Shown here piece after piece: positions 233 through 32,082 of a stretch of 57,712 nt of DNA (positions are counted from its first letter, which is position 1; each line of letters starts with the position of its first letter). The position numbers and the translations under genes are program-made. The DNA is from a virus (taxonomy: Duplodnaviria; Caudoviricetes), in the IMG/VR virus record IMGVR_UViG_3300024309_000001, positions 1-57,712 of that record; one strand, written 5' to 3'. The notes under the pieces are model-generated. The model was not told the DNA's origin. It worked only from the letters and a program-made list of their open reading frames with translations, and did no database searches.

Positions 233-3200
233 CTACTTCTGGCGCTCCCTCACCTGCTCGTCGGCCATCATCGCCAGGCGGTTGCGCGCCTGGTACAGCT
301 CGTCGAGGCGCGCCCGCTTCTCGTCTGCCGACAGATCACTGCGCTGGATGCGCTTGATGGCCTGGTTGATCTTGCTCAGCTGATTGCCGGCCGACTTGGC
401 GATCCCGTACAGTTTCGCCTCGCTGGACCGCTTCAGATCCTCGGCCCGCTCGACGTCGCCCATGGCGCGGGCTTGGTTGTAGGCGGAATAGACCTGGTTG
501 ACCTCGTTCTGCATGTCGTAGAACCGCTGGATGTACTTGCTGCTGGGCGAGGCCGCGTCCTTCACGAAGTCGCCGACCACGAACCAGTTGTCGATCTTGC
601 CCAGATCGCGGCGGGGATTCTCCGGCAGGTTGGACAGCGGCCGCGCCAGGTAATCGGCGACGTTCAGCGCCTGGGTCCCCAGCCAGCCGAAGTACCCGCG
701 CGCCAGGTGCTCCAACCGCTGAGGCGACATATTGATGGCGCGGCCCAGGGCCACTGCGCCGGCGCTGGTCTGGCCGGTGAAGCGCTCACCAGGCGGCAGC
801 CGTTCCTGGCCCATGCTGTCGATGGGACGCTCCCGGAAGGTGTCGTAATTGAATCCTGTCTCCATGGCTGGTTTCACGGCCTGGGGAATCGGGTTCATGG
901 CCAGTTGATCGCCCAGCACCCCCGCCACAGTCTTGGCAAAGTCGCCCAGCCGGTAGTCGTCACCGCCAAACGCCAGTTCCGTACCGCGCTCGACCACAGT
1001 GCCCAGTGCCCCGATCTCGAAGGGCTTCGGGACGTATACCATCTTGTCAGTGCCCGGCAGCTTCACCACCCAATAGGTATTCCGCACCCAGTCGGGCAGC
1101 GCCTTGTAGTCGTCGTCGTCCTTCATGGACAGGTACAGCAGGGCCGACGCCAGCCCGACCGCACCGGCCACCGCGGCGAACCGCGCCGGATTGTCGCGGA
1201 CGGCACGGCCCAGCTTGTACATGCCCTGGAGGCGCGCATTCATGAAGGGCACCACCTGGGTCAGCAGCCGCACGGCCGCGAAGGACCCGTGGCTGGTGAA
1301 GTCCATCAGATCGCGGGCGAGGTAGCTGGCCTCGAGGTGGGATTTCCCATTTCGGATGGCCGCGTCATAGATGGCCGCCCGGTTCACGGTCTCCGAGCGG
1401 TCGCCCAGATCCTGGTACCAGTCGAAAGCCTTTCGGGCGTAGCGCCGCAGATCCGCAGGCGACGACACCACCTGATCGGCGCTGACCTGCAACTCGTCGA
1501 CCAGGCGCTTCACGTTGCGGGCCTGGCCATCGTTGAAGGATCCGAAGCGCACCGCCCCGCCCCCGGCCAACAGCTTGCGCATCGTGGGCGATTCGCTGCC
1601 GGTGGCCTTCCATCCCTCGACCATGTTGCGCATCGGGTTCAGGCTGATCTCGCTGTCGATGGAGACCGCCTGCAGGCTGTCGCGCAACAGGTTGCGCACG
1701 CGGAACGTCGGCGAGATCGTCACCCCAATGGTCAGGGCGTGCTTCATCTTGCGCATGGCCCGCATGATGGGATCGTTCGATCCCACGTAGTGCAGTGAGG
1801 TCAGGGAATCCAGCACCATGGGGTCATCGACCATGTAGTGCTTCTCCTTGCCATCCACCATGATTCGCACGCTGTCCTTCTGTGCGGCGCCGATCTTCTC
1901 GGCGATGCCCATCTCCACTGCGGACTCCATGGCGCCCTGGGCGGCCAGGTTCTTCATGCTGGCCGAAAGCAGGTGCGACCAGTTGGAGACGGTGTTGGCC
2001 GTCAGGTCCCCGAGCTTTTCCTTGCCGCCCTTCAGCTTCTTGAACGCCCGCTGCCCCACCAAGCCGGCGATCTGCCCGGGGCCCATCGTGCCGGTGGCGT
2101 CGTTCTCCATCTCCCGGTAGAACGGCACGTAGAATTCATGCTCCCACAGCTTGCGGGCCTCGCTGTTGATCAGGCCGGCCTCCTGGGCGACATCGAGGAC
2201 GGACTTCTGCAACACGTTCAGATCCTTCAGCGCGGCCGCGTACACGTCGGCGCGCCGGCGGCCGTCCGGCATCTTGCCCAAGTTCAGGCGCTTGAGTGTC
2301 GCCACGTCGTCGGGCGTGAAGAGGTGTTCGCGCCCCTCGGCCAGCAGGCGCTCTGCCCGGTTTCCGGCGATCCACGCCATGAAGTGGTCGTGCTCCCCGC
2401 GCAGGCCGGCCAGGATGTCTGCCAGGCCCTTGCCGCCGGCGCCGTCGATGGCCCCGTCTGTCAGCTTGACGGCGCCGTGACGCACCAGATACTCGGCCGC
2501 GCCGTCCGTCCCCTTGGACAGACGCGCCTGCATGTAAGCGGTCGGGCTCAAAGCCTTCAAGGACAGGAAGTGGTCGAAGATGCCCTGCACTGCCTTGGCG
2601 CGCCAGCCGTCCTGCAGCTTGGCCAGCCGGTCCTGAATGGAGTCCGGCTTGGCAAAGGCGCCGATCTTCCCCAGGGTCCGGTCGCGCAACAGGCGCTCCG
2701 TCTTCGACAGGCTTTCGCCCGGGCGCACCGTGTTGGAAGCCTCGGGTTGCACGGGCTTGCTGGTGGGGGGCAACGTTGCCGCCCGCGATTCCACGGGCCC
2801 ACTGAAAAGCCCCGCATCTGGCGGGGCTTCGTTGTCATCCTGGTTGGGGCTCAGGCCGCTTTCTTGCCGCCCCAGATCTTCTCCCCGTAAGCCATCGCCT
2901 CGCGCATGTCCTTCCGCAAGGACTCGATCTCGGACGGCGTCAGGCGCTCCATTCCTGGACTCGGCTGAACCAAACTTCCACCCAGCCCTGCCTTCGGCAT
3001 TGACGATTTCTTTGATTTCATCTACGCTAATCGTGGCTCTTGCGCCGCTTTCCATATCCCCGGGTTTGGATCCTGGGTTGATGTTGGGGGTGGTGTCAGG
3101 AGCTTTTTGCTGGCTGATGCCCGACAAGTCATGATCATAAAAGAATTCGCCATTGTTGGCTTCCCTAATCAGTAGCCGCGCCACCCGCAAATCACCGCCA

Positions 3201-6200
3201 ATACGCACCGGAGCATACATTGTGTGCATAGCCCTGGTGCTGGTGTCTGATGCCAGCTTTGCGGGCGCGCTATGGCTCAGGGTTGCATGACGCAGCATGT
3301 CAGGCAGCGCAGCGATCGATTGAACCTTCTCGATGCGGGCGCTGCGCGACAGGGTTTCCTTCAGCCCGCGCCGCCCAACATGAATATCCCAGCCCTGCTC
3401 CGCATTACGGAACTGTTTTCCCTGCAGGTGCTCAGCCCCCCACTCCTTCGCCTGGTTACGCAGGGCAACCACACCATCAGCGGGATTGCCAAACTCTAAC
3501 CCGGAAACATCAGCAGTCGGCACGCCGGCCCTACCGTTGCTTGCCGCCATCGAAGCCGCAGCCATCCGCGTCCCAGAGAATGCCTGGTCCGCCTGCGTGC
3601 GGCGCAGGAACCGGCCAGCGTCGATCACCATCTGGCGCAGGTCGGCCGTCGTCAGCTTCAGATCGAACCCCATAGCCCGCAGCGCCGCCCGCATCTTGGC
3701 GTACAGACCCTGCAGGAAGTACTTACGGCCGCCGGTCTCGGCCATCCTGGCCAGGACCTCCCGTGCCCGGGCTTTTGCGCCGTAGTCCGGATACCGCATG
3801 CCCACCGCCTCCATGGTGGCGTAATTCTTGTCACCGGGCTGCTCGTTGCCGGTGGCGCGCTCCCCGGCCGGCACCCTGGCCAGGCGGCGCACGTCGGCCA
3901 ACACCCCATCGAATCGTTCGCCCAGCAAAGCCTCGACGCCGAAGTGCCCGACGATCTCGTGCGCCAGCACCTGCTGCAGGCGTTCCATCGTCGGCAGGTT
4001 GTCGGCCACCAGGTAGATGCGCCCACCGTCGCCAGCCGGGTAGTAGACGCCCTCGGCCATGTTGGAGGGTCCCTCTGGAATGTCCTTGACCGACTGGACG
4101 ACGGACACCTTCAGCCGTCCCGCCCCGGGCAACTTCTTCATGAAGGCGCCGGCGAACACCCGAGCATCAGCAACAGAAACCCCGGCGCCAGGCCGGGGTT
4201 GTCGGGATTCAAATTGACCGCCAGATCGCGGCACAAGCCGCTGTCCGGTTGGCGCCAGCGGCTTGCCGTCCGCGACGATATCGAGCGCGCGAATGCCGGC
4301 ATCCTCCAACGCCTTGTTCAGGTTCCGGGCCTGGTCAATGTTTCCCTCGGACTGCACAATCGTGATGGCGGACGAAGTATTGGCCTTCTCCACGCCGGCC
4401 ATCAGCTTTTCCAGGCCGCCGGTACCGCGCAGCCGCCCCATTTCGTGCGCCATCATCGGCAGGAACGCAACGGGCCTGTGCAGCGCGTTCAGCAGCATCA
4501 CGCCATCCCTGCCGCCAGAGATCCGCTCAGCCAATCCGGCAACATTCAAGGGATCCACCATATCGCCCAGCGTGCCGCGCTTGACGAACGTGCGCTCCAC
4601 GACAGGGATCTGCTTGGGGCGCGACACGGGCCGCACCTTCCCTCTGGCGATGTCGCCGCGGGCGTCCACATTGGAGAACGCGCCTTGGCCCACAGCCATC
4701 AGTCCCTTGTATTCGATCCGTCCGCCGCGCAGCAGGTCAGCGATCTTCTTGGACATCCTCAGGTCCGCGTTCGACAGCTCCGACACGCCAGACGGGTGGT
4801 TGTGAACCAGCCACATATGCTTGGCCCTCGGCACGCGCGCCGCGTGGCCAATGATGATGTCTGGCTCGATATCTGTGCTGGACTTCCGGCCCAGGCTGTG
4901 CCGCAAGACGCTGATCGGCATGCCGGCCTCATCGGTCAGCAGCATCATCAGATTCTCTTGGGGAGCCTTGCGGATGCTGGCCATGGCGCTGGCCACGGCA
5001 TCAGGGGAAGCGATGACGCCATCTGGAACCCTCAGGTCGAGGGTTTTCTTGGCTTCGACGCGGACGGCGAACTGGCTGCCTTCGGGTTCGATGATGATGG
5101 CGGCCGCCCGGGAACGAAGGCTCGGAAGCCGTACCGCACCGGATCCGGACTCAGTTCGAGTGGAGGCCGCACGCCGACCCCCTCCGCTGGAATTGGATAC
5201 CTCGGGCTCAAGGTCGAACCCTTGCCCGAAGAGGTCTTGCGTGCCATGAGATTCTTCTAGCCGCGTTGCGGCATCGTCGGCATTTGCAGGGCGGGCTCCT
5301 TCGTTTTCGCCCTGTTGCCTGCCTGCAGACCGATCCGAGTCAGCACGTCGGCCGCCTTTGGATCGCTCCACACCGAAGATGTCTTTTTGTCCTGTCGAGG
5401 CTTGTTCTCGGCCATAGCGATTCCTGATCAGGGCTTCGCCCCGGTTGATGATGTCGTCTGCCGACACCTGGGCGCCACCGAACATATCCTGGCTGCCGGC
5501 ACGCGCCTGTTCATTCTGGACGAACAATGCCATATCGCGCAAGGCCTCCGACACCCGACGCGGCGCGCGAATGTTGCCCCACAGCAGCCCGACCATGCGG
5601 TCGACCAGCGGATCACGCCCGAACAGATCCTGTTGGGCCAGGTGCTGATCCATATTTAGGCCCCGGGCCCGAGCATCGCGGATCTGGTGGACCGCCGCCG
5701 CCAGCTGCGGCCGGATGTCCAGAGGTCCAGCGTCCAAGCCCGCGAAGTCTGGTGCAGCCATGGTCAGCGCGTTCAGGATGTTGCGCACGTCCGGATCCGC
5801 GCTCTCGGACGCCATCGAGGTCAGTGCGTCGTCACCATAGGCGCGGTGGAACACGGCCGCCCGGGCGCGGTCCATGAACTGACGGGAGTAGTTGCCCTGG
5901 CCGTCCCGGATCTGGGCGGCATCCTCGCCCTGGTGCTGGACGGCGCGCACGAACGCATCCAGAAACCGGCGATTGGATGCCGAATCGAACGCTCCGGATT
6001 CGCCCATATCCAGCAGATCAACTGGCGTAATCCGCGCATCGTTGGCGGCTTGCTCCGTGGCAGACATGCCCAGGTTACTCTGGGGATTGGACAGCGCGCC
6101 CATGTTGGGGCGCCGGTTCTCGGCGTCCGCGTAGACGCGCACCAGGACCGGCTCGCGCTTGGCGCGAATGGCCTCAGGCGACACGCCGTGGGCCTGGGCG

Positions 6201-8713
6201 TCGTCAATCATGGCTTGGGTATAGGCACCAGCCTTCTTGCGACGGTACGCCTCCTGCAAGCCCGCCATACGGCCATTGTTCAGCGCCCGTACCTCGCCCG
6301 GCTTGGCGTCGGCATAGTAGGCGGCGTTCTCGGTGCCGTCAGCCGCGTGAGAGGCCAGCGCATCGGAGGCCTCGATCACCGCGTAGCGCACCGGGATCTT
6401 GGTGCCGTCGCCCAGGGTCACGCGGTCAGTGCGCCCCATGTCGGATTCCGGGATGCGCGCCGTGTCGCCAGCAACAGACACCATGGGGGCCGCCTCATTG
6501 GGCGATCGGCCGAACCCCAGGCGGTCGTAGTCCGGCGCATTGGCGATCCGGTTCATCTGCTCGATGCTGGCCGGGCGGCTGCGGTCGCGGTTCTGCCGGG
6601 ACAGGTCGGTGCCCGCTTGGTCGCGCTGGGCCACCGGCTTGGTGGTGTCGCCCTTCTTCAGCCACTCCTTGAACGCAGGCATATCCATGGGCGTCACCTT
6701 GCCCATGCCCTTCCACCCGCGCGAATAGCTGCGGCGGTAGGCCGTCTCGGCTTCCTTCTGGCTGCCGTAGCCCACCATGACCTTGTGCTCGTCGAACTTG
6801 CCGGTCTTGGGGTCCATCTGGTCCACCACGAACACGGGGCCGCTGTAGTCCTCGGCCGTGCCCGGCTTCAGGAACACGTCCACCTGGTCGCCGTCGGCGC
6901 CTTCCGTGCGCCGGACATAGCCGTAGTGCCCGGCCATGCGGTTGACCCATGGCTTGCCGCCCGGATCCGTGCCGCGCCGCTCAGACCCTTCCGGGTTCTC
7001 GATTGAGATGTCCAGCCCCGCCACGCGCACGTGGCCCTTGCGGTAGTTCCCGGCCTCTTTCTGGCCGTCCGTGGGCTCAACCGCTGGCGTGCCGACTGGC
7101 GAGGTTTGGGCGGCATGCGCCGCTTCGTCCACCGGCGTCTGAATGGCCTGCGGCCGGCCCGGATGGTTCCGGGCGGCGGTCTCCACATCCCGGGTCAGCC
7201 CCAGGTCGCCAGCCTCCCGCTGCCTGGCCAAGTCCGCCGACCGTTGCTCGGCCGTGCGCGCAGCCCCAGCAGAGTCCACGGTGACGGTCGGGGCAGGCAG
7301 CGCCAGGGTGGGCTCAGCCGCAGGTGCAGCAGGCGGCCGAGGGTTCGCTTCTGGACGGCCCGGGTGGTTGCGCCCTGCCGCCTGGACGTCATCGGTATAG
7401 CCAAGATTGTCCCGGGCCCAACGCTCCAGCTCATCCAGAGCGGCGCTTTCCATGCGCTGGCCGGCAGTTCTCGCCGTGCCGTCCTGGCCGACGGTCACCG
7501 TAGGAGCAGGCAGGGCCAGAGGATCGGCCGGCTCCTGTGCTTCCGCAGCTTCCATGCCGCGCCGGCCCGGATGGTTCCGGGCGGCGGCATCTTCGCGGCT
7601 CATAACCTGCCCATCAGCGTCCACCCTGAACGCATCCTGGCCGCTGGGCGACGGCAGGGCGAGCGGCGCGGCTGGCTCCTCGCCCTCGGCAGCGCGCTCG
7701 GCGGCGACCTTGCCATAGCGGTCCTGTACAGAATCACCAGCAGCCCGACCATGCGACAGCCCACCCACCACCGCGCCCACCGGGCCGCCCTGCGCGGCAC
7801 CCATCGCCGCCATCGCGGCAACGTTCTTGGTCGGGTCGATGCTGGGGTCGATCTTCTGGGCCGCGCGCTGCCCTTCGTACTGGGTCAGGCCTTCCTCGGC
7901 CGCCTCGGTCGCGGCCTCCACGGCGCCAGTTCCCAGGGCCCCGCGCAGGCCGCCCTGCGCCATACGCCCGCCGGCCAGTATCTTCTCGGCTCCGAACGCA
8001 CCGGCGGCCGCGCCAGCCAGGGCCGGCAGCAGACTGGCATCGCGCCCGGCCTCGCGCGCCAGGGTCTCGCGGATTTCCTTGGGCAGATAACCCTGGTCGG
8101 CCAGGGCTTGGGCCGGCTCGCTGGCCATCAGGGTGCGCTCCGGCATGCCCATCACCAGGTCGTAGGCGTTGCCCGCGGCATCACCACCGCTCAACGCAGC
8201 GCCCGTGCCAATGCCAGCAGCCCGGCCAGCCAGCGCCGCTCCGCGCTCTCCCCACCCCAGCAATCCGGCACCGACCCTGGCGCCCTTGATGGCCGCGCCT
8301 GGGACAAGGAAACTGCCGGCGGCCTGCGCGGCCGCCTGCAACGGGCTGTCCACGATATAGTCGCCAACGGCCTTCAGATCGTCGCCCACTCCTTCGGATT
8401 GCTTCAGGGCCTCGTTGAGCTTCGCGCGATCCGCTTTCACGACATCGCTCTGCTTCTCCTGTCCGGCCCTCACAAAATCGTCAGCAGCCCGCGAGAACCG
8501 ATTTCCCGGCACCGCGAAGTCAGCGACAGCGCCCAGGCCACCCACGGCAGCATTCGCCAGCTCGATCATGGTGTCATTGGCGACCGCGAACGGCGTCCGA
8601 GTTGCCGGCTCGGCCGGCTGGCCTGCGGTCGGCGCGCCATACCGCTCCCAAGGCTTCATGCCACCGGCTTCAGCACGGGCTGGCACCCGGTACTTCTCCC
8701 ACGGTCCGGCCAT
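233..8713 (-). CDS. Large polyvalent ejection protein (InPase-like, DdrB/ParB-like, RadC/JAB, zincin MPTase, LPD3/MuF-C-like, LPD38-like)
   Basis: 2826 aa; motifs GNYRKGH..IENPEGSER..HYGY..DGDQVDVF; NRDRSR..NNGR; HNHPSG..S..D; HEIVGH; FFYDHDL; YKALPDW..PKPFEIG. Confidence 0.85.
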   Translation of the reverse strand: MAGPWEKYRVPARAEAGGMKPWERYGAPTAGQPAEPATRTPFAVANDTMIELANAAVGGLGAVADFAVPGNRFSRAADDFVRAGQEKQSDVVKADRAKLNEALKQSEGVGDDLKAVGDYIVDSPLQAAAQAAGSFLVPGAAIKGARVGAGLLGWGERGAALAGRAAGIGTGAALSGGDAAGNAYDLVMGMPERTLMASEPAQALADQGYLPKEIRETLAREAGRDASLLPALAGAAAGAFGAEKILAGGRMAQGGLRGALGTGAVEAATEAAEEGLTQYEGQRAAQKIDPSIDPTKNVAAMAAMGAAQGGPVGAVVGGLSHGRAAGDSVQDRYGKVAAERAAEGEEPAAPLALPSPSGQDAFRVDADGQVMSREDAAARNHPGRRGMEAAEAQEPADPLALPAPTVTVGQDGTARTAGQRMESAALDELERWARDNLGYTDDVQAAGRNHPGRPEANPRPPAAPAAEPTLALPAPTVTVDSAGAARTAEQRSADLARQREAGDLGLTRDVETAARNHPGRPQAIQTPVDEAAHAAQTSPVGTPAVEPTDGQKEAGNYRKGHVRVAGLDISIENPEGSERRGTDPGGKPWVNRMAGHYGYVRRTEGADGDQVDVFLKPGTAEDYSGPVFVVDQMDPKTGKFDEHKVMVGYGSQKEAETAYRRSYSRGWKGMGKVTPMDMPAFKEWLKKGDTTKPVAQRDQAGTDLSRQNRDRSRPASIEQMNRIANAPDYDRLGFGRSPNEAAPMVSVAGDTARIPESDMGRTDRVTLGDGTKIPVRYAVIEASDALASHAADGTENAAYYADAKPGEVRALNNGRMAGLQEAYRRKKAGAYTQAMIDDAQAHGVSPEAIRAKREPVLVRVYADAENRRPNMGALSNPQSNLGMSATEQAANDARITPVDLLDMGESGAFDSASNRRFLDAFVRAVQHQGEDAAQIRDGQGNYSRQFMDRARAAVFHRAYGDDALTSMASESADPDVRNILNALTMAAPDFAGLDAGPLDIRPQLAAAVHQIRDARARGLNMDQHLAQQDLFGRDPLVDRMVGLLWGNIRAPRRVSEALRDMALFVQNEQARAGSQDMFGGAQVSADDIINRGEALIRNRYGREQASTGQKDIFGVERSKGGRRADSDRSAGRQQGENEGARPANADDAATRLEESHGTQDLFGQGFDLEPEVSNSSGGGRRAASTRTESGSGAVRLPSLRSRAAAIIIEPEGSQFAVRVEAKKTLDLRVPDGVIASPDAVASAMASIRKAPQENLMMLLTDEAGMPISVLRHSLGRKSSTDIEPDIIIGHAARVPRAKHMWLVHNHPSGVSELSNADLRMSKKIADLLRGGRIEYKGLMAVGQGAFSNVDARGDIARGKVRPVSRPKQIPVVERTFVKRGTLGDMVDPLNVAGLAERISGGRDGVMLLNALHRPVAFLPMMAHEMGRLRGTGGLEKLMAGVEKANTSSAITIVQSEGNIDQARNLNKALEDAGIRALDIVADGKPLAPTGQRLVPRSGGQFESRQPRPGAGVSVADARVFAGAFMKKLPGAGRLKVSVVQSVKDIPEGPSNMAEGVYYPAGDGGRIYLVADNLPTMERLQQVLAHEIVGHFGVEALLGERFDGVLADVRRLARVPAGERATGNEQPGDKNYATMEAVGMRYPDYGAKARAREVLARMAETGGRKYFLQGLYAKMRAALRAMGFDLKLTTADLRQMVIDAGRFLRRTQADQAFSGTRMAAASMAASNGRAGVPTADVSGLEFGNPADGVVALRNQAKEWGAEHLQGKQFRNAEQGWDIHVGRRGLKETLSRSARIEKVQSIAALPDMLRHATLSHSAPAKLASDTSTRAMHTMYAPVRIGGDLRVARLLIREANNGEFFYDHDLSGISQQKAPDTTPNINPGSKPGDMESGARATISVDEIKEIVNAEGRAGWKFGSAESRNGAPDAVRDRVLAEGHARGDGLRGEDLGRQESGLSPNQDDNEAPPDAGLFSGPVESRAATLPPTSKPVQPEASNTVRPGESLSKTERLLRDRTLGKIGAFAKPDSIQDRLAKLQDGWRAKAVQGIFDHFLSLKALSPTAYMQARLSKGTDGAAEYLVRHGAVKLTDGAIDGAGGKGLADILAGLRGEHDHFMAWIAGNRAERLLAEGREHLFTPDDVATLKRLNLGKMPDGRRRADVYAAALKDLNVLQKSVLDVAQEAGLINSEARKLWEHEFYVPFYREMENDATGTMGPGQIAGLVGQRAFKKLKGGKEKLGDLTANTVSNWSHLLSASMKNLAAQGAMESAVEMGIAEKIGAAQKDSVRIMVDGKEKHYMVDDPMVLDSLTSLHYVGSNDPIMRAMRKMKHALTIGVTISPTFRVRNLLRDSLQAVSIDSEISLNPMRNMVEGWKATGSESPTMRKLLAGGGAVRFGSFNDGQARNVKRLVDELQVSADQVVSSPADLRRYARKAFDWYQDLGDRSETVNRAAIYDAAIRNGKSHLEASYLARDLMDFTSHGSFAAVRLLTQVVPFMNARLQGMYKLGRAVRDNPARFAAVAGAVGLASALLYLSMKDDDDYKALPDWVRNTYWVVKLPGTDKMVYVPKPFEIGALGTVVERGTELAFGGDDYRLGDFAKTVAGVLGDQLAMNPIPQAVKPAMETGFNYDTFRERPIDSMGQERLPPGERFTGQTSAGAVALGRAINMSPQRLEHLARGYFGWLGTQALNVADYLARPLSNLPENPRRDLGKIDNWFVVGDFVKDAASPSSKYIQRFYDMQNEVNQVYSAYNQARAMGDVERAEDLKRSSEAKLYGIAKSAGNQLSKINQAIKRIQRSDLSADEKRARLDELYQARNRLAMMADEQVRERQK

Positions 8714-10095
8714 TACATCTTCTCCCAGTTGCTGGCGTCCGACGGGTCGCCGCCCTTGAACCGATAGCCGTCCTCGACGGCGCCGACCGTCGGGCCAGCG
8801 GTGTCCGCGGCACCACCATCGTTCATGCTGTCGTACAGTTCCAGGCCCTGCTGCAGCGCCTGCCTGGGGGTGAGCTTGTCGCTACCGAAGTCGCCGCGCT
8901 GGTTCGAGAGGATTGACTTCGCCGCATCCAGGGCGAATTCCTGACGCGATTTGGTGCGCGCTCCGCGCACCATGTCCCAGGCCGACGAGGCGTCCTTCGC
9001 CACGCCGTTTTCGATCAGCCATTTGGCGGTTCGCACTTCGGACGGCGCCGCCGCCTTGTTGTCCACCGAACCCTTGGCGGCGTCAGTTTTGCGCTGCTCC
9101 GCGCCTCGCGCCCCGATCTCGCTCAACGCCATACCGTGTTCAGCACCAGCCTTGCGGATACCCTCGTCCGTCTTGAAGCGCTCCTTCTCCTTGAAGGTCT
9201 GCATGTCGTACCAGTGCTTGGCCTGCTCGGCAAACATGGTCCGGTAGCCGCGGCCGTCGCCTATCGTGCTCAGGAACTGGGTGAGCGTCTGCTGGCTGAA
9301 CGGTTGCTGCACCGGCTGGCCGGTTTCGTGGTTGATCCCGTGGGCGATGTACACCGGCTGGCCGCCGGCCGTCTCCGGCCGCTTCTCGATGCTCTGCAAT
9401 TCGATCCCCGTCGGAGCGAACCGGTTCACAAACGGCACGAATGCATTGGGATCGCCGGTGAGGTCAAACCGGCTCATGGCCTCGCCGAACGCCTGATCCC
9501 GGTATTGGCCGATGGTTTTCTCGCGGGCGACCATCAGTTCGATGGCCTTGCCCGGGGCCCCCAGCTCCAGCGCCTTGCGGATGCCACGCGTCAGCGATTC
9601 CGCCATGTCGCCGAATTCACCGCCGCTCAGGAAGCCTTGTGGCGCCGGATTGTCTTTTTTTTTTGCCAAGCCGAGGGATGCGGCCTGCCGGTCCTGCTGC
9701 ACGGCCAAAGCGAGGCCTGGCGCCGCCGGCGCTTGCAGACCTGCGGCTTGGCCGCCGGCCTCCCGCGGCACACCGGCGGACTGGCCTATTGTGGGCTCCG
9801 ACATTTGCACGGGATACGCTTGCGCCTGCTCGGGTTGTTGGGCCATGCCGGGGTGCGCCATGACGGGTTCCGGCGTCTGCACCGGCATGGTTTCGGCTCC
9901 GCTGGGTTGTACACCGGCGGCCAGCATCATCGGCGACGACGTTTCCGGATCCAAGCCCTTGGATTTCATCGCTTCCGCGATTGCCGCATTGACCTCCTGC
10001 TCCTTCTTCTTCTCCTGCCCGCTCTGATAGGCGTTGTACAGCGCCATGCCATTATTCAGCCCCTGGGCCAGGCCCGCCGCAAATCCACTTGCCAT
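8713..10095 (-). CDS. Internal virion/ejection protein
   Basis: Starts MASGFAAGLAQG, helical, ends DGYRFKGGDPSDASNWEKM; TAATG overlap with the next gene. Confidence 0.7.
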   Translation of the reverse strand: MASGFAAGLAQGLNNGMALYNAYQSGQEKKKEQEVNAAIAEAMKSKGLDPETSSPMMLAAGVQPSGAETMPVQTPEPVMAHPGMAQQPEQAQAYPVQMSEPTIGQSAGVPREAGGQAAGLQAPAAPGLALAVQQDRQAASLGLAKKKDNPAPQGFLSGGEFGDMAESLTRGIRKALELGAPGKAIELMVAREKTIGQYRDQAFGEAMSRFDLTGDPNAFVPFVNRFAPTGIELQSIEKRPETAGGQPVYIAHGINHETGQPVQQPFSQQTLTQFLSTIGDGRGYRTMFAEQAKHWYDMQTFKEKERFKTDEGIRKAGAEHGMALSEIGARGAEQRKTDAAKGSVDNKAAAPSEVRTAKWLIENGVAKDASSAWDMVRGARTKSRQEFALDAAKSILSNQRGDFGSDKLTPRQALQQGLELYDSMNDGGAADTAGPTVGAVEDGYRFKGGDPSDASNWEKM

Positions 10096-10096
10096 G

Positions 10097-11350
10097 TCAG
10101 TCTCCCTTGTTGATGACGGTTTCCAGCCCAACGATCCCTGCCGAGATATCACCCTTCAGGGGATCGGGCAGGCTGGACGGCTTTTCACGAAATTCCACAT
10201 CCTCCACATCGGCCAGGCCGGCGGCGCGCCGCTCCAGCCGATCGATGCGCTTCTCCAATTTCTTGCCGCGCTTAGACAGCGCCCGGATGGCCGCGTGGTG
10301 CTTGCCGCTGACGCTGATCAGATCCAGGCCGACGCCGCCCGGCGCAACCTCGTCGCCCATCGCGGCCTGCATATCCTCGGCAATCGGGCCGGTATGCTGG
10401 CCGCCGTCGTCCACGCCGTCCTTGTATTTCCAGTCCTTGACGGCCACCTGCTCGAGCTCGCCGAGCGCCTTTTCATCGTCGGCAGGCCGGATGTCTTCCT
10501 TGAGCTTTTCCGAGGACCACTTCATGATCGCCGCGCCACCCAGCGAGCCCAGCAACGAGCCCAGGCCTGCCTGGCCGGCCGCGTTCTGCTGGTTGACCGC
10601 CATCTGCTGATTGATCATCGAGTTCAGGTTGCTCTGCAGCAGTCCGCCCGCCGATCCGATCTGTCCGGCACCCGCCCCCATCAGGCTGCCGGCCTGCTGG
10701 CCAGCCGCCAGGCCGGCCTGTTGCTGCTGTCCCAGGATGCCTGCGGCGGAATTCCCCCCCTGCAGGGCCGCCGCGGACGCTGCGAGACCGGTCCCCGTTT
10801 GATTACGGCCGAACCTGGCGGCGTTCTCGCGCAGCGACATGCCCAGCAGTTTCGTGTTGTTGCGTTCCTGGTTGACCGCGCCGGCTCGCGCCAGCGCCCG
10901 CGCATTGGCCTGATCGCGCATGCCCTGGGCGCCGAGGCTAGAGGTTGGCGACACGCCCATGCGCGCCATGTCGCGGCCCATCTGGGCGTCGGACGCATCG
11001 AACTGTCGCGCCACCGTGGCCGCCGCCAGCCCTTCGCGCCGGGCGGTTTCCTCTGGGCTGTCGTAGTTCATGGCCTCTTCGGCCATCTGGTTTTCGATGG
11101 GCTGGAACACGTCCTTGTACTGCTGCCACTGGTCGGCCGCCCGCTCCTGGTTGGTCTCCGATTCCGAGATGGCCGTGTTCATCAGCTTCTCGTAGATCGG
11201 GTCCATCCGGTCCGTGCGTTCCTTCTGGTATGTGAATTCGTCGCGGCCCAGTTGGGCCAGCTCTCGGCCGATGGCCGCCTGTTCCAGCGCCGCTTGTCCG
11301 ATCCTGGGATCGTTTTGCACCGTGGTGGTGCTGCCGCCTTTCCCGCCCAT
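10097..11350 (-). CDS. Ejection/pilot protein with C-terminal peptidase S74-like chaperone domain
   Basis: MGGKGG start, G/A/Q-rich body, SSEKLKEDI..WKYK..GPIAED then a coiled coil. Confidence 0.75.
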   Translation of the reverse strand: MGGKGGSTTTVQNDPRIGQAALEQAAIGRELAQLGRDEFTYQKERTDRMDPIYEKLMNTAISESETNQERAADQWQQYKDVFQPIENQMAEEAMNYDSPEETARREGLAAATVARQFDASDAQMGRDMARMGVSPTSSLGAQGMRDQANARALARAGAVNQERNNTKLLGMSLRENAARFGRNQTGTGLAASAAALQGGNSAAGILGQQQQAGLAAGQQAGSLMGAGAGQIGSAGGLLQSNLNSMINQQMAVNQQNAAGQAGLGSLLGSLGGAAIMKWSSEKLKEDIRPADDEKALGELEQVAVKDWKYKDGVDDGGQHTGPIAEDMQAAMGDEVAPGGVGLDLISVSGKHHAAIRALSKRGKKLEKRIDRLERRAAGLADVEDVEFREKPSSLPDPLKGDISAGIVGLETVINKGD

Positions 11351-11354
11351 AGCT

Positions 11355-11795
11355 TTATCCCCGCTTCAAAAATCTCATATCCAGAAACCGGCACTCTGAC
11401 TTCAGCATGCCGAACAAAATGCCGTCGTACCCGCCCGCGAATGCCTGACGCACACGTCCCTCTTCCACGAAGCCGAGGCTTCGATCAAAGCGCAGCGCCT
11501 CCGCGTTGTCCTCGCGCACGATGCCGGTGACGCGCACCAGCCGGTACTGCACGAACGGCACGAAAAAGGTCCAGAACAGCATCTCCCGGCTGATCCAGCG
11601 CCTCGAGTAATCGGAGGCGACATGGATCATGCAATCACGATCCGTGAAGCGGTCGTAGAGCACCACCCCCAGGATCTCGCCGCCATCCGACAGGCTGGAC
11701 AGGCATTTCGTGAGGGGGCCATGCGTGAATGTTTCGCCCAGCACCGAAGAGGCGAACTCGAAGTATTCGGCTCGCTGCTCGTCGGAAACACGCAT
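11355..11795 (-). CDS. GNAT acetyltransferase-fold protein (P22 gp14-like position)
   Basis: VREDNAEALRFDRSLGFVEEGRVR, RimJ/RimL-like motif B. Confidence 0.75.
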   Translation of the reverse strand: MRVSDEQRAEYFEFASSVLGETFTHGPLTKCLSSLSDGGEILGVVLYDRFTDRDCMIHVASDYSRRWISREMLFWTFFVPFVQYRLVRVTGIVREDNAEALRFDRSLGFVEEGRVRQAFAGGYDGILFGMLKSECRFLDMRFLKRG

Positions 11796-27361: not shown

Positions 27362-29584
27362 CTATGTGGCTGGCGCGCCCTGCGGCGCGGCCGGCCTGGC
27401 CTGCAGGCGCATCAACGTGCGCTCGGTCTCGGCGTTCTCGTGCATGGCGGTCTGCTGCAGGCGCGCGCGGTTGTCGGCGTCACGGCTGGCCAGCTGCTGC
27501 TGCAGGCGTTGGACCTGCTCGAGCAGATGCTGGACTTCCTGCTTAGCGGTATCAGCCTGCGGGTCGGCTGCGGGCGCGCCGGCCTCGGCCTGAATCTGGG
27601 AAGTTTCGGCACGAGTCTTCTCGGTCTTGGCCACGCGCTCGTCGATCTTGGACTTCGCGTCGGCCATCTGCAGCTCGTTCGCAACGGCCTGGGTTTGTTT
27701 GGCCTGCTGCTCGGCCTGCTGCGCCTCGGGGCTATTCGGGTCGGCCTGGATGCCCAGTTGCTTGCGCAGAAACTCAGCCATCTCCTTGCGCTTGCTGAAG
27801 TCCGACATCTCCAGCGCGAAGGGCACCAGCAGCGCCTGGTACTGCGGCGGCATGGATTTCAGGATCTCGGCGAACTGGCCGAACTGCTGCTGGCGATAGG
27901 ATGGCGTGCTGGGGACGTCGGCCAGGGCCACCTTGACGGGCGCCACCTGGACGTCGTTCTCGCGGTACTCCTGGCCGGTGGCATCGCTACGCGCCGGGAT
28001 GTTCACCATCACCCGCCGCTTCACCGTGCCGTTATCGATCATGATCTCCTGCTGGCCAGTCAGGTCTTCTTTGACAAGCTCCAGCAGGGCCTGGCCGACC
28101 AGGCGGCGCGATTCGCGGTAGTTGTCGTTGATCTCGGCTAGGGTTGTGACGCCCTGCTCTACCAGGGACTGGATCGCCGTGCCGCTGGATGCGTTGCTGT
28201 TCTGACCCATCAACGCCGAATACACGCCCGCCGCTTCCTGGATCGCCTGCTTGCGCTCCTGCATGACGCTGAACTGCTGCGCCGACAGCGCCATGTTGTC
28301 ATCGACCCGGATGGCGTTGGCGCCGCCCGTGCGGCTGGGGTTGGTGACGATGAACGCGTCGGCCCGCGCGACTTCGCGGCTCACGTCCGAAAGCGTGTTG
28401 TACTGCGCGTCCACGGCGTCTCGGTCGATGAAAACCCGCCGTGAATTGAGCAACCACATCATCTTGGCCGTGCGGGCGTTGACCTCGTCCTGCGGGCTCA
28501 GCATCGTGCGGATCAGGCCGTACGGCACGCCGGTCAGGTCCTCGCGGTAGCCAAAGAACGGGATATACGGGAACCGGCGCTTGTTCGTCGCGCGGTCCAG
28601 CAGCCGGATCGGGCCGCAGTAGAACGCCACGCGCAGCTTGTCGTAGACCGCCACGCGCGGCTGCACAGCGCCGGAGGCCACGACGGCCCGATGGTACGGG
28701 TTGCTCTCGCAGAACTCGAGCACGCGGCCGCCGGGCAAACTCATGACCAGGCCGCGCACCCACACTCGGTACCAGACCTCGAAGCACGTCACCTGCTGGC
28801 GTGTGGTGTCGCGCCATTCCAAATCGTCCCAGGATGTCCGGATGCCCTGCTCGATGGAGTGCCGCAGATCGGCGCTCATCCGGTTATCGAGCGTCAGATA
28901 GTCCGACCAGTCCGTCCAGTTGCCGGCCGCCCGGATCGCATCGGCATGCTGCGGGAACCAGGCGGCTAGGTGATCGGCGTCATAGCGCTTACGGCGCACC
29001 ACATAGCGGGCGTCCGACCAGTCCGGCTTGCGGCTGCGCCAGTCCCAGAACATCTCGGATCGGTGGATCGCTTCCACACGGTACGGATATTCGAAGGGGT
29101 TGTTGTTGCGCGAAACCTCGACCGCAGCAAAACCGCTCTTGATCGTGCCCGCGTAGGCGTCGGAGTTGGCCCTATCCGCGTGGCTCTCGCGTTCGGCCTC
29201 GTGGAGCTTTGCGCCCAGGGCGTCGGCGACGTCGCCCCACCGGTCATCGTCAGCCGATACCGTCCAGTCGGTCCTTGTCTTGGCTTCCATGCCCAGCACG
29301 GCATTGACCGTGGGCGCGATCAGGTTGGTGATCAGCGGGCCCAGGCCCTTGTCGCTCAGGCGCTGCAGCGTGTCGGGGTCGAGTTGGTTGCCGTCGTAGT
29401 AGTCGGCGCACTTGTCCGCCTCGCGGCGCCAGGCCGGCTGGTCACGGATCTCCGACAGCCAGCGCTCCAACTGTGTGACGGTCAGCATGCCGGGCTCGGG
29501 GTGCGCCTTGTCGTGGGCATGCGAGACCGTATCGGCGCGCTCGTCTCCGAGCAGGTCGAATCCAGTCACTGCAGTAGTCATCAT
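27362..29584 (-). CDS. Portal protein (P22/933W-like)
   Basis: DYYDGNQL..NLIAPTVNAVLG..FPYIPF..PYGLIR..QDEVN..SGTAI, plus helical barrel. Confidence 0.9.
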   Translation of the reverse strand: MMTTAVTGFDLLGDERADTVSHAHDKAHPEPGMLTVTQLERWLSEIRDQPAWRREADKCADYYDGNQLDPDTLQRLSDKGLGPLITNLIAPTVNAVLGMEAKTRTDWTVSADDDRWGDVADALGAKLHEAERESHADRANSDAYAGTIKSGFAAVEVSRNNNPFEYPYRVEAIHRSEMFWDWRSRKPDWSDARYVVRRKRYDADHLAAWFPQHADAIRAAGNWTDWSDYLTLDNRMSADLRHSIEQGIRTSWDDLEWRDTTRQQVTCFEVWYRVWVRGLVMSLPGGRVLEFCESNPYHRAVVASGAVQPRVAVYDKLRVAFYCGPIRLLDRATNKRRFPYIPFFGYREDLTGVPYGLIRTMLSPQDEVNARTAKMMWLLNSRRVFIDRDAVDAQYNTLSDVSREVARADAFIVTNPSRTGGANAIRVDDNMALSAQQFSVMQERKQAIQEAAGVYSALMGQNSNASSGTAIQSLVEQGVTTLAEINDNYRESRRLVGQALLELVKEDLTGQQEIMIDNGTVKRRVMVNIPARSDATGQEYRENDVQVAPVKVALADVPSTPSYRQQQFGQFAEILKSMPPQYQALLVPFALEMSDFSKRKEMAEFLRKQLGIQADPNSPEAQQAEQQAKQTQAVANELQMADAKSKIDERVAKTEKTRAETSQIQAEAGAPAADPQADTAKQEVQHLLEQVQRLQQQLASRDADNRARLQQTAMHENAETERTLMRLQARPAAPQGAPAT

Positions 29585-32082
29585 CCGCGCCAATTTTCCC
29601 GATAGGGTTTGAACTCGCCGACCGTCGGCACCTGTGCGAACCGCAGGCTCATCACGCCGTACCGCGTCGCATCCATCGCGTCGTCCATCAGTTTCACGAC
29701 GACGCCATCTTTCCGGTGGTAGACCCGGTACTCAGCGAACCAGTCTTCCAGGCCCTCGAATACCTTGAACCGGCCCGTCTGCATCCGGGCCAGGATGATC
29801 TGCAGGCCCGGCTCAACGCCCACGCTGCCGTCCTCGAACTGGGCTCGTTCCGACAGCATGTTCACGCCCTCGCGCCGGTATTCGTCGCGCATGGGCTTGC
29901 CGCTGTCCTTCTGGGTCTGCAGCGCGTCCGAGGGCCAGGCCATCGGGATCCACGCTCCCCGGGCCTTGATTGCGCTGGCGTGCACGGCCGGGACTTGCTT
30001 CGAGCGCTTGTACACGTCGTACACGTACACGACGTCGGTGTCCCGGTTGTGTGCCATCCAGACCGCCGCGGTGGGGTGGTCCCAACCCAGGTCCATACCG
30101 GCAATGCGCGGCCACGAGTCCGGGATGCTAAACCCCGGGATCGTGATGTCCGACTCCTTGACTGGATACACCGCGCCGCTGCCCAGCACCGGCTTGCCGA
30201 AGGCGCGGGCCTCGCGTTCGTGTTCCGGGTAGCTGGCGACGATCGCGTCGGCCTGCTCCCGGGTGTAGTGCCCGGCGTCGTAGACGCCCATGAACACCAC
30301 TGTGGTCCCATCGTGCTTGTCGATGAGGAACCGCATGACCGTCTCGCTCATGCCCATCAGCGGCGTGAACGTCATGTAGACGGGGCCGAGCGTCGTGTTG
30401 GTGCGGGTCAACGCCTCCATGTAGATCTCGTGCGGCGGCTCCTCGTCAAGCCACACGAAGTCCAGGGTCTCGACCTGAAATTTTGACCGGCCCTGCTCGT
30501 AGTTCCGAAAGCCTAGGACCGATTCCCCGGCCTGCACGTCGCCGCCACCGCCGTGACGGATCACGGCCAGCGCGTAGGCGTTCGCAACGCCCGACAGCGG
30601 CGACAGTTCCTTGATCGCGTCACGCGGGATCGCTGCCGTGCCCAGTTCCGAGTCAATGCCGGGTCGGCCGAACAGCAGCCGCTGCACACCGTCGCGCGTC
30701 GACGCCGCCGATACCGATGCCGCCCATCCCGCTGTGGGCCGGTCGAACGTCTTGCCTTCCCACCAGTCCGGATAGCGGCCAGTCAGGTGCATCGCCGTCT
30801 CGAACGAACCCGCCCAGGTGTTATGCGTGACGATGAAATGGTCCGTCACGTAGGTCCGGCTCGGGTGCGCCACCGATATGCACGTGCACTCGCCGTCGCC
30901 GACTGCCTCGATGGTCCGCAGCACGTGGTGCCGGGTATTGCCGGCGGGAACCACGCGATCCTGCTTGCGCCGCATCCTGAACAGCGGGAAACCCGGTGCC
31001 CGCACGTGCACACGCCACGACGGCCGGCCTGTCCGGCGCTCCCCGTTGTGTGTGTATCCGGTCACCCGGCGCACGGCACGCGCCTTCACACCCAAACTGC
31101 GCAGCAGGAACAGCACGTCATCGCACAACCGCTCCGAGGTCGTGCTGTATTCGATGGTGCCATTGCGGTCTGCACTGCCGTCGGTATCGAACAGCCCCTG
31201 CAACACCGCCAGCCGCGTCGCGGCGTCGTTCAGCAGATAGGCGGCCGGGACAAACCGTTCATGCGACTTCAGCCCGGCCAGGCCCATTTCACGAAGAGCA
31301 TCCAGGACGGGGTTGATGCTGCCCGGCATCCCGTCAGGGCGCCGGCCAGGTTCGCCGACGATCCGATGAGTGATGCCCGCGCTGTGCAGATGCGCGCCAG
31401 CCGGCAGGGCTTGCTCGACCATGGCGCGCAGGTCTGCGTCGGGTTTGCTGTACGAGACACCGCCCTCGGCCAGGCAGCCGTCGCCGATCAACACACCAAC
31501 CAGGTAGCCGTCCAACGGCACCCGGGCGGCGTCAAACCGTACGGGATCAACGGCCGGCGTCAGAACCCTGCGGCGCGGCCGCGGATTCCCGCCGTCGATC
31601 GCCAGGATCTCGCTGGTATCACCGACCGACCATGCCCCAAAGCGCGGATTGCCTTGCGCCTGACCATGGCTATGGCGAGTCGGATACCGCGCCGCCGGGT
31701 GCTGATACATCCAAAGATGCTCGCCGCAGCACTCGATGGTCTCGCCGTAGTCGAACGTCAGCCGGTAAAGTGCCTTCACGCCCTGCGGAAAGACACCCGT
31801 CACGGTCGTGATCGAGCCGTCGCCAGCGATGACCTGGTCACCGATGCGCAGCGCCTCGATTGGCACCCAGCCGCTGGGCGTCAGAACCGGCGTGCCGTTG
31901 CGCAGCGCCTTGCCCAGCTGGTTGCCCGCCGAGAACAACCGCTCCCGGAAGGACTTGCCCGCCGCGTGGAATTCGCGCTGCTTCTCGTAGGGCCGGTAAT
32001 ACTTCAGCCGGTTCTGACGTGCCCGGCGCGCACGCTCCATCAGCGCCTGGGCGAGAACCAGGCGGGGATTCTGGACAAGCAT
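29581..32082 (-). CDS. terL: Terminase large subunit, intein-interrupted
   Basis: GNQLGK|T Walker A, VWLDEEP Walker B, TFTP, GMDLGWDHPTA, DDAMDATRY. Confidence 0.93.
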   Translation of the reverse strand: MLVQNPRLVLAQALMERARRARQNRLKYYRPYEKQREFHAAGKSFRERLFSAGNQLGKALRNGTPVLTPSGWVPIEALRIGDQVIAGDGSITTVTGVFPQGVKALYRLTFDYGETIECCGEHLWMYQHPAARYPTRHSHGQAQGNPRFGAWSVGDTSEILAIDGGNPRPRRRVLTPAVDPVRFDAARVPLDGYLVGVLIGDGCLAEGGVSYSKPDADLRAMVEQALPAGAHLHSAGITHRIVGEPGRRPDGMPGSINPVLDALREMGLAGLKSHERFVPAAYLLNDAATRLAVLQGLFDTDGSADRNGTIEYSTTSERLCDDVLFLLRSLGVKARAVRRVTGYTHNGERRTGRPSWRVHVRAPGFPLFRMRRKQDRVVPAGNTRHHVLRTIEAVGDGECTCISVAHPSRTYVTDHFIVTHNTWAGSFETAMHLTGRYPDWWEGKTFDRPTAGWAASVSAASTRDGVQRLLFGRPGIDSELGTAAIPRDAIKELSPLSGVANAYALAVIRHGGGGDVQAGESVLGFRNYEQGRSKFQVETLDFVWLDEEPPHEIYMEALTRTNTTLGPVYMTFTPLMGMSETVMRFLIDKHDGTTVVFMGVYDAGHYTREQADAIVASYPEHEREARAFGKPVLGSGAVYPVKESDITIPGFSIPDSWPRIAGMDLGWDHPTAAVWMAHNRDTDVVYVYDVYKRSKQVPAVHASAIKARGAWIPMAWPSDALQTQKDSGKPMRDEYRREGVNMLSERAQFEDGSVGVEPGLQIILARMQTGRFKVFEGLEDWFAEYRVYHRKDGVVVKLMDDAMDATRYGVMSLRFAQVPTVGEFKPYRENWRG
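30820..31908 (-). mobile_element. 363-aa class-3 intein with LAGLIDADG endonuclease
   Basis: ALRNGTPVLT...IVTHN|T; LVGVLIGDG and LQGLFDTDG motifs; W (HLW), C (CTCISV), T (VTHN). Confidence 0.9.

Follow-up and report, generated by a model that had tools for sequence, protein, structure and literature searches.

For the question of how the ejection proteins of podophages recognise one another and exit the capsid in sequence, which is still open, a few described systems offer points of reference. In T7, the N-terminus of gp16 acts as a 'molecular tape' on the C-terminal domain of gp15 and stabilises the gp15-gp15 interfaces (PMC8954989, PMC13128918). In N4, the N-terminal domain (NTD) of gp50, the virion RNA polymerase (vRNAP), associates with gp51, and in DEV gp72 associates with gp71, which the disordered C-terminal part of gp72 has been suggested to bind (PMC13434306, PMC10925440). 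In P22, removal of the last 33 residues of gp20 yields non-functional virions (PMC10461980). The contacts known from T7, N4 and DEV come from single structures, without a sequence signature. Here we describe a candidate for such a signature in a complete virus record, IMG/VR IMGVR_UViG_3300024309_000001 (57,712 bases, or 57.7 kb; G+C = 64%; hereafter the window): a 27-residue module at the tail of a 460-residue protein, and two short PW-containing peptides at the head of the 2826-residue giant protein encoded directly downstream. We think it likely that module and peptides are a docking pair that joins the C-terminus of a tunnel protein to the N-terminus of the next ejection protein, and we read the pair as the sequence signature of this joint in a large group of phages.

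Comparison with described systems

The T7 complex resembles the proposed arrangement in two respects, as the larger ejection protein, encoded directly downstream, holds with its N-terminal portion the C-terminal portion of the tunnel protein, and the stabilisation of gp15-gp15 interfaces by gp16 recalls a two-peptide head that would hold two tails. However, the gp15-gp16 contact is made by larger domains rather than by a 27-residue module and a hexapeptide, and no swap of the two has been described; a 40-residue tail query matched 28 phage records, none of them T7-like. The schitoviruses N4 and DEV also have a giant virion protein with a membrane-binding N-terminus, cargo domains and a C-terminal encapsidation region (PMC13434306, PMC10925440, PMC5512222), whose NTD is associated with the tunnel protein and leaves after it, and the window's giant protein matches the PHROG of the N4-type NTD. 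It differs in its cargo, which consists of polyvalent effector domains instead of an RNA polymerase; in addition, the contact residues are undefined in the available portions of the N4 and DEV papers.

P22 has the same gene order and one-base overlap, a gp20 C-terminus that is essential (PMC10461980), and a gp20 family (PF16928) to which some tail-bearing upstream proteins belong, but neither the module nor the PW peptides. About 30 copies of gp20 and 12 of gp16 are reported per P22 virion (PMC8402733), a ratio that, by analogy, would fit a two-peptide head in spirit. Among external structures, the receptor-binding proteins of Klebsiella podophages (PMC13352976) likewise combine a branching domain on one protein with a conserved terminal docking peptide on the other, although these are tail fibres rather than internal ejection proteins and their sequences, as far as visible, are unrelated.

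Contact between consecutive ejection proteins is therefore known, and what is new within the searches made is a compact, swappable module-peptide pair. The motif strings do not occur in the texts of the 8.4 million articles searched, and a literature search on docking in ejection proteins returned nothing on the tail-head pair (supplementary files were not covered in either case); no Pfam, PHROG or NCBIfam family models the tail. The docking domains of polyketide synthases (PKS), to which a first reading of the window from its letters (the sequence-only reading) had compared the junction, and those of nonribosomal peptide synthetases (NRPS) also use short complementary C- and N-terminal elements to set the order of a multi-protein chain. 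That comparison holds as an analogy of logic and not beyond it, as those domains have other folds (mostly helical), another biology and no common ancestry with the elements described here.

Module and peptides at the gene junction

The upstream open reading frame (ORF; 8713-10152, minus strand) ends in ...AGPTVGAVEDGYRFKGGDPSDASNWEKM*, and the giant-protein ORF (233-8713) begins with MAGPWEKYRVPARAEAGGMKPWERYG; its start, MAGPWEKY...KPWERY, is also given as MAGPWEKYRVPARAEAGGMKPWERY. The two ORFs share one base in a TAATG (Table 1). These are the observations from which the sequence-only reading had proposed tail-to-head docking, and all three, the tail C-terminus, the overlap and the start with its repeated motif, are exact. 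In the six-frame translation of the 57,712 bases, the pattern G[YFW]x[FYW]xGG[DN]P has a single match and WE[KR][YMFWL] has 4, of which 3 lie within ~30 codons at the junction.

Across related loci, the tail has the consensus xPxVGxVxDGYRFKGGDPxxxxNWEK. The logo of the first head peptide shows P and W at 100%, E at 91%, K at 70% and Y at 91%, percentages that are inflated by head-seeded rows, as the logo pools loci found from the tail and loci found from the head. Two PW peptides, 8-36 residues apart, are present in 170/184 non-identical junctions. At these 184 junctions the spacing of the two genes lies between 19 bases of overlap and a gap of 14 bases, with a one-base overlap in 140, a 4-base overlap in 12 and no gap in 16.

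Tail and head are inherited together

Related loci were collected with two seeds, both canonical motif patterns, and the counts given for them apply among the matches listed. First, a degenerate DNA pattern for GGDPxxxxNWE was searched in viral contigs, which gave at least 120 loci. The motif lies at an ORF C-terminus in 114/120, a downstream ORF is in view in 112, and 109 of these 112 carry PWx(2-3)[YFW] within 25 residues of the next gene's start, compared with 18/4547 among the remaining ORFs with a length of 100 aa or more. The pattern is missed in three loci, L003 (a PWEENL variant), L014 (PYEQY) and L032 (no head); L020 and L035 have no usable downstream ORF, and six loci are chance or internal matches. 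Second, MAGPWEKY was used as the seed, giving at least 119 loci. The upstream protein bears the tail module in 119/119 of them, within 14 residues of its C-terminus in 113; in the others the tail is followed by a 27-aa extension (3) or stands internally before an extra C-terminal domain (3). The co-occurrence scan that the sequence-only reading had suggested thus links the motifs in both seeding directions, with independent assortment in neither: complementary elements on a C-terminus and on its successor's N-terminus are inherited together.

Both ends are far more conserved than the proteins that bear them. With 45 sequences per set, and each end measured in the set not seeded on that end, the mean pairwise identity is 0.56 for the tail versus 0.18 for the rest of the protein, and 0.62 for the first nine head columns versus 0.19. 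All synonymous codons are in use at the conserved residues of both ends, which indicates that selection acts on the proteins. The tail terminates 15/18 homologues of the window's 460-aa protein, and 190 other tail-bearing proteins share only the tail with this family: BLAST and a profile of the window's upstream family gave no body similarity to the 190, and the profile gave none to P22 gp20. By BLAST single linkage, 139/190 upstream bodies and 132/180 downstream bodies fall into one cluster each.

In two cases both elements are missing together. In Achromobacter phage CF418P1, the window's only named relative, the homologue of the upstream protein lacks the tail and the homologous giant protein lacks the PW peptides, and gp20/gp16 of P22, a more distant pair, has neither motif at its one-base junction. 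This joint absence, as far as these sequences go, fits a docking function.

The pair is present in Pseudomonas phages F116 and H66, EBPR podovirus 2 and Bradyrhizobium phage ppBeUSDA76-2, and at no fewer than 21 prophage junctions in bacterial genomes (at least 21, mostly Alpha-, Beta- and Gammaproteobacteria). The giant protein of H66, gp60, lies at a junction with both motifs, and the available part of its record note reads 'verified by mass spectrometry as part'. F116 (L214, NC_006552, 7085-7300) has one G less than H66 (L338), right after the second PW peptide; its head-bearing frame runs for 37 codons before it stops, and p59 is annotated from a start located upstream in another frame. 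The difference reflects a sequencing error or else a genuine frameshift in the gene for the giant virion protein.

Two further sets of loci were noted during these searches. In L129, L150 and L197 the module stands 100-160 codons before the stop, and after it comes an additional C-terminal domain, 100-150 residues long and by eye cell-wall-hydrolase-like; the downstream protein of these loci is short (222-335 aa where complete) and has one PW peptide only. The tail DNA pattern also matches an unrelated cellular family of Clostridia/Eubacteriales (L224, L225, L230, L237, L251, L272 and others) through an internal ...L[KT][YF][KL]GGDPLxxxNWEK..., which is non-terminal and without a PW partner.

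Module and peptide swap places between partners

A profile of 141 tails was compared with 1.84 billion representative proteins and matched 7774 protein clusters at E <= 0.001, 1468 of them at <= 1e-10. Among the best 150 of the 7774 matches, 90 have a single C-terminal module and 44 have one or two N-terminal modules, the latter in proteins of up to 3820 aa. A search for proteins of the latter kind together with their neighbouring genes gave at least 24 loci of a swapped layout, in which the downstream protein opens with one module (13) or two (11). Among the matches listed, 22/22 upstream ORFs in view (L489 being counted after frame correction) close with a PWx peptide in their last 25 residues, such as RPWERY, KPWERNYR, RPWEKYKK, APWERTW or SPWDDF; in control ORFs such an end occurs in 27/10,406. 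None of the 134 scored junctions (112 normal and 22 swapped) brings two modules together.

The linear order is reversed between the layouts (peptide, stop, modules in the swapped; module, stop, peptides in the normal), which rules out a shifted stop codon as the cause. The exchange has taken place between homologous proteins. L374 (swapped) and L111 (normal) have upstream proteins with 38% identity over 533 aa and downstream proteins with 43% over 932 aa, and L416 (swapped) and L072 (normal) have 37% upstream and 36% downstream identity. Overall, swapped bodies match normal-layout bodies at E < 1e-5 for 7/14 upstream and 9/16 downstream proteins, and phrog_5880 is present in downstream proteins of both layouts. 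As read from these sequences, we regard the reciprocal swap as the decisive result for a pairing of module and peptide.

Peptide and module also appear to change together. Asn after the module's invariant Pro accompanies those peptides in which an additional residue precedes the aromatic (PWxxx[YW]): in the normal layout, this Asn is present in 7/9 PWxxx[YW] loci versus 0/96 others, and in the swapped layout in 6/7 versus 0/6 (counts not corrected for relatedness). In the homologous pairs L111/L374 and L120/L461, peptide spacing and module residue differ jointly.

The first tandem-module pattern used to search for swapped loci was unspecific (4 true among 120), so two tighter patterns were used; in the third, 21/54 loci are chance matches in unrelated proteins. 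A related-locus search with two swapped-layout proteins gave no match. The chance matches of the third pattern include an unrelated P-loop protein with ...FGYAF[ML]GGNPQRRI[IV]F[IL]QGGTSTGKT... (L493, L494, L499, L509 and others, on viral contigs of ~67 kb).

Predicted fold of the tail

AlphaFold2, given a 48-aa tail with 141 sequences, places strands at residues 28-29, 32-34 and 45-47, with a pLDDT of 85-90 for residues 21-48; the same segment reaches ~82 in the model of the full-length upstream protein. The 27-residue tail is therefore predicted to be a small autonomous three-stranded mini-sheet, and this confident model agrees with the C-terminal mini-domain that the sequence-only reading had supposed. 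Complex prediction with the 48-residue tail and a 60-residue head (141-row alignments each) gave scores of 0.12 and 0.09, compared with a mark of 0.32, and speaks neither for nor against binding. Foldseek and VIA-align found no structural match for the tail model, a module too small for fold searches. Pfam gave no family shared by the 141 tails, NCBIfam had no match for either end, and ESM Atlas returned only unnamed viral clusters, at or below 0.90.

Two leads for the module's identity were followed and dropped. A WW domain is, like the predicted tail, a three-stranded sheet (antiparallel in the WW domain) of ~30 residues with a conserved Trp near its end, and the ligand proposed here is similarly short and contains Pro and Tyr. 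A WW profile expects two conserved Trp ~20 residues apart, whereas the tail has a single invariant Trp, and none of the 141 tails matches any WW model at E up to 10; Foldseek and VIA-align, which return nothing for so small a model, gave no structural match either. A weak likeness of the tail hairpin to the N-terminal ends of P22 gp16 and of the giant protein of CF418P1, noted by eye, was unsupported.

A docking model and its alternatives

In the model that we favour, a tiny three-stranded module would form from the last 27 residues of the upstream protein, two short peptides (GPWEKY and KPWERY) would be displayed within the first 25 residues of the giant protein, and binding of module to peptide would join the two ejection proteins, the C-terminus of the first being plugged into the N-terminus of the second. 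The joint would tie the putatively membrane-binding N-terminal region of the giant protein to a trans-periplasmic tunnel protein at the latter's far end, at the inner membrane, so that the giant protein would leave the capsid behind the tunnel protein and with its N-terminus leading. With a pair of peptides on the downstream chain, each giant protein could hold two tunnel subunits. Support comes from the sequence features, the linkage, the swap and the predicted fold, from which we infer direct binding; the proposed stoichiometry would follow from the peptide count, and a role in ordered ejection or packaging is argued by analogy with the published work on T7, N4 and DEV. The sequence-only reading had arrived at the same interpretation, a C-terminal mini-domain that binds the PWE(K/R)Y peptide of the next protein and so chains the two, and it gains support from the linkage, the joint absence in relatives, the 22/22 reciprocal swap and the predicted tail.

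Both elements might instead bind a common third partner, such as the portal, the tail channel, a scaffold or another internal protein, and serve as incorporation or exit signals that never touch each other. The W-x-K core common to the tail (NWEK) and the heads (PWEKY) could point this way, as could the occurrence of the module in other protein contexts and the fact that the DEV tunnel protein rings the portal inside the virion (PMC10925440). However, independent signals need neither adjoining termini nor lasting complementarity, whereas no module-module junction occurs among the 134 scored, every one of the 22 swapped loci keeps one element of each kind, and peptide spacing covaries with a module residue. 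The product of the block's first gene (P0003) also bears neither element, and we consider a shared third partner unlikely.

Aromatic and basic residues are typical of interfacial anchors, and the Trp/Tyr/Lys-rich elements might therefore be anchors at the membrane or peptidoglycan that mark where the tunnel meets the inner membrane, without specific recognition of each other. This would suit the position of the heads just before the Gly/Ala-rich region related to the membrane-binding NTD of the N4 vRNAP, and the extra, by eye hydrolase-like, C-terminal domain that follows the tail in three loci. We hold such anchoring to be improbable, as it leaves the strict complementarity, the swap and the covariation unexplained, and the prediction for the tail is a compact, soluble mini-fold that has conserved Gly-Gly-Asp-Pro turns, rather than an amphipathic segment.

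The elements might also not interact at all and be those ends of a vertically inherited cassette of two genes that evolve most slowly, kept for example by each protein's own folding or stability. The genes are always adjacent, and most upstream (139/190) and downstream (132/180) bodies do fall into one cluster each. Under separate constraints, however, a swap between homologous pairs is not expected; furthermore, the window's upstream family has only the tail in common with the others, and both elements are absent together from the homologous CF418P1 pair, so that we give this explanation very little weight. Conservation for the sake of translation (coupling, re-initiation, frameshift or read-through fusion at the overlap) might be suggested by the one-base TAATG/TGATG overlap in 140/184 junctions and by two swapped loci (L468 and L488) in which stop and start are adjacent and in frame, but is hardly credible given that all synonymous codons are used at conserved residues, that junction spacing varies between 19 bases of overlap and a gap of 14 bases, and that the motif functions whichever element comes first and at distances of up to ~150 residues from the stop.

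Several observations weigh against the docking model. First, the two genes are syntenic, and part of the co-occurrence is vertical inheritance; the covariation counts are uncorrected for relatedness, and some of the swapped loci are near-identical (L491, L505, L506). Second, seeding on canonical motifs, with counts from the matches listed, under-samples divergent forms. Third, there are exceptions: PYEQY follows the tail in L014, no recognisable head gene accompanies the tail of L032 and L035, and the peptides of L003 and L470 lack the final aromatic. Fourth, the window's own upstream protein has no detectable similarity to gp20- or gp15-type proteins. Fifth, CF418P1 and P22 do without either motif, which makes the pair one solution rather than a requirement. 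Finally, the module is also met elsewhere: P0056 and P0057 bear one at each end, and P0030 has two at its C-terminus. The partner of the module may therefore not always be a head peptide. P0030 has 85 residues and a hydrophobic N-terminal stretch before its two modules, and looks membrane-anchored; P0024 and P0040 are likewise among the profile matches with unusual module settings. Such proteins could serve as decoys or stand in the middle of longer chains.

A broader idea, which we consider doubtful, is that module and PWxKY form a portable plug-and-socket code that chains internal virion proteins in a set order, because the pair can be placed on either partner, is usable at both ends of a middle protein and is common to otherwise dissimilar families. 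Under such a code, P0056 and P0057 would make three-member chains, and P0030-type proteins could capture the peptides of incoming ejection proteins, which would amount to superinfection exclusion.

If the docking model is right, the motif pair would flag the joint between tunnel and inner membrane across thousands of phage and prophage genomes that are as yet uncharacterised (7774 clusters at E <= 0.001), would permit the annotation of ejection-protein pairs without family assignment, and would bring the idea of an ejection order within reach of tests by simple mutants and peptides. As the pair apparently works in either orientation, it may be a very small natural module-peptide tag pair. It is also a plausible target of host or prophage systems that block DNA entry: P22 mutations that escape SieA map to the C-terminal regions of gp20 and gp16 (PMC10461980), and T7 mutations that escape HXS map to gp15 and gp16 (PMC13128918).

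The three-gene block and its neighbours

The junction lies in a podophage-like structural cassette on the minus strand, which comprises small and large terminase, portal (27362-29593), major head protein, tail and internal-virion genes. Its last part consists of three consecutive co-oriented genes that encode proteins of 417, 460 and 2826 aa; this order of small, medium and large, downstream of the terminase, portal, major head and tail genes and within the virion structural module, is that of a podophage ejection-protein operon of the T7 gp14/15/16 or P22 gp7/20/16 type (Table 1).

Table 1. Features of the junction and of the three-gene block, in window coordinates
Feature	Position	Strand	Basis or remark
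Tail module GPTVGAVEDGYRFKGGDPSDASNWEKM, 27 aa	8716..8796	-	Predicted three-stranded mini beta-sheet
TAATG stop/start overlap, one shared base	8711..8715	-	TAA 8713-8715, ATG 8711-8713; typical translational-coupling arrangement
Head peptide 1, GPWEKY, giant-protein residues 3-8	8690..8707	-	Sequence and logo
Head peptide 2, KPWERY, giant-protein residues 20-25	8639..8656	-	Sequence
First gene of the block, virion structural protein, 417 aa	10097..11350	-	phrog_8003 at 9e-71; Peptidase_S74 (PF13884) at 7e-12, residues 279-335
Upstream protein, 460 aa (P0006)	8713..10095	-	Likely true start ATG at 10095; ORF open from GTG at 10152
Giant polyvalent virion protein, 2826 aa	233..8713	-	InPase, ddrB-ParB, RadC/JAB, LPD3 and LPD38 domains
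Gly/Ala-rich N-terminal region of the giant protein, residues 97-353	7655..8425	-	phrog_2206 at 3e-8 (N4-type virion RNA polymerase N-terminal region)

The 417-aa protein (P0003), which has neither the tail module nor a PW peptide, occupies the position of the small outer-membrane ejection protein of other podophages. Its Peptidase_S74 domain is an intramolecular-chaperone domain commonly found in tail fibres and spikes. Directly upstream of the three genes, inside the structural block, lies an acyl-CoA N-acyltransferase-like gene (11355-11795; phrog_4470, 8.5e-35).

The position of the 460-aa upstream protein corresponds to that of a gp15/gp20-type tunnel protein. It is mostly helical, with a disordered Ala/Pro/Gln-rich stretch, and matched nothing in Pfam, PHROG, NCBIfam or PDB sequences; Foldseek with the full-length model gave no match at E <= 0.001. 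In related loci, upstream proteins match the P22 gp20 family through PF16928 (1/29 scanned; L142, 2e-19), phrog_2534 (3/29) and phrog_917, and some upstream proteins bear SLT or M15 hydrolase domains. The downstream proteins of related loci match PHROGs named 'DNA ejection protein', 'DNA transfer protein' or 'internal virion protein', or are polyvalent giants. These family matches, together with the N4-type N-terminal match of the window's giant protein, fit the label of consecutive ejection proteins under which the junction had first been described.

The giant protein is a very large phage polypeptide that combines several unrelated effector domains with LPD domains, which are the features of polyvalent proteins as defined by Iyer, Burroughs and Aravind (2017; PMC5512222). 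An HExxH motif is visible in its sequence, and its body is homologous to those of other head-bearing giants (L171, L127, L157, L084). The N-terminal region of the N4-type virion RNA polymerase, to which residues 97-353 are related, is described as membrane-binding (PMC13434306); tblastn with the first 400 residues of the giant protein gave no match among named phages. Its InPase domain (6650-7168; residues 516-694) resembles a solved portal protein (9b41_L, 2.8e-29) over the C-terminal part of the latter. This match probably explains why the CF418P1 homologue is annotated as a 'putative portal'; the real portal of the window is located at 27362-29593.

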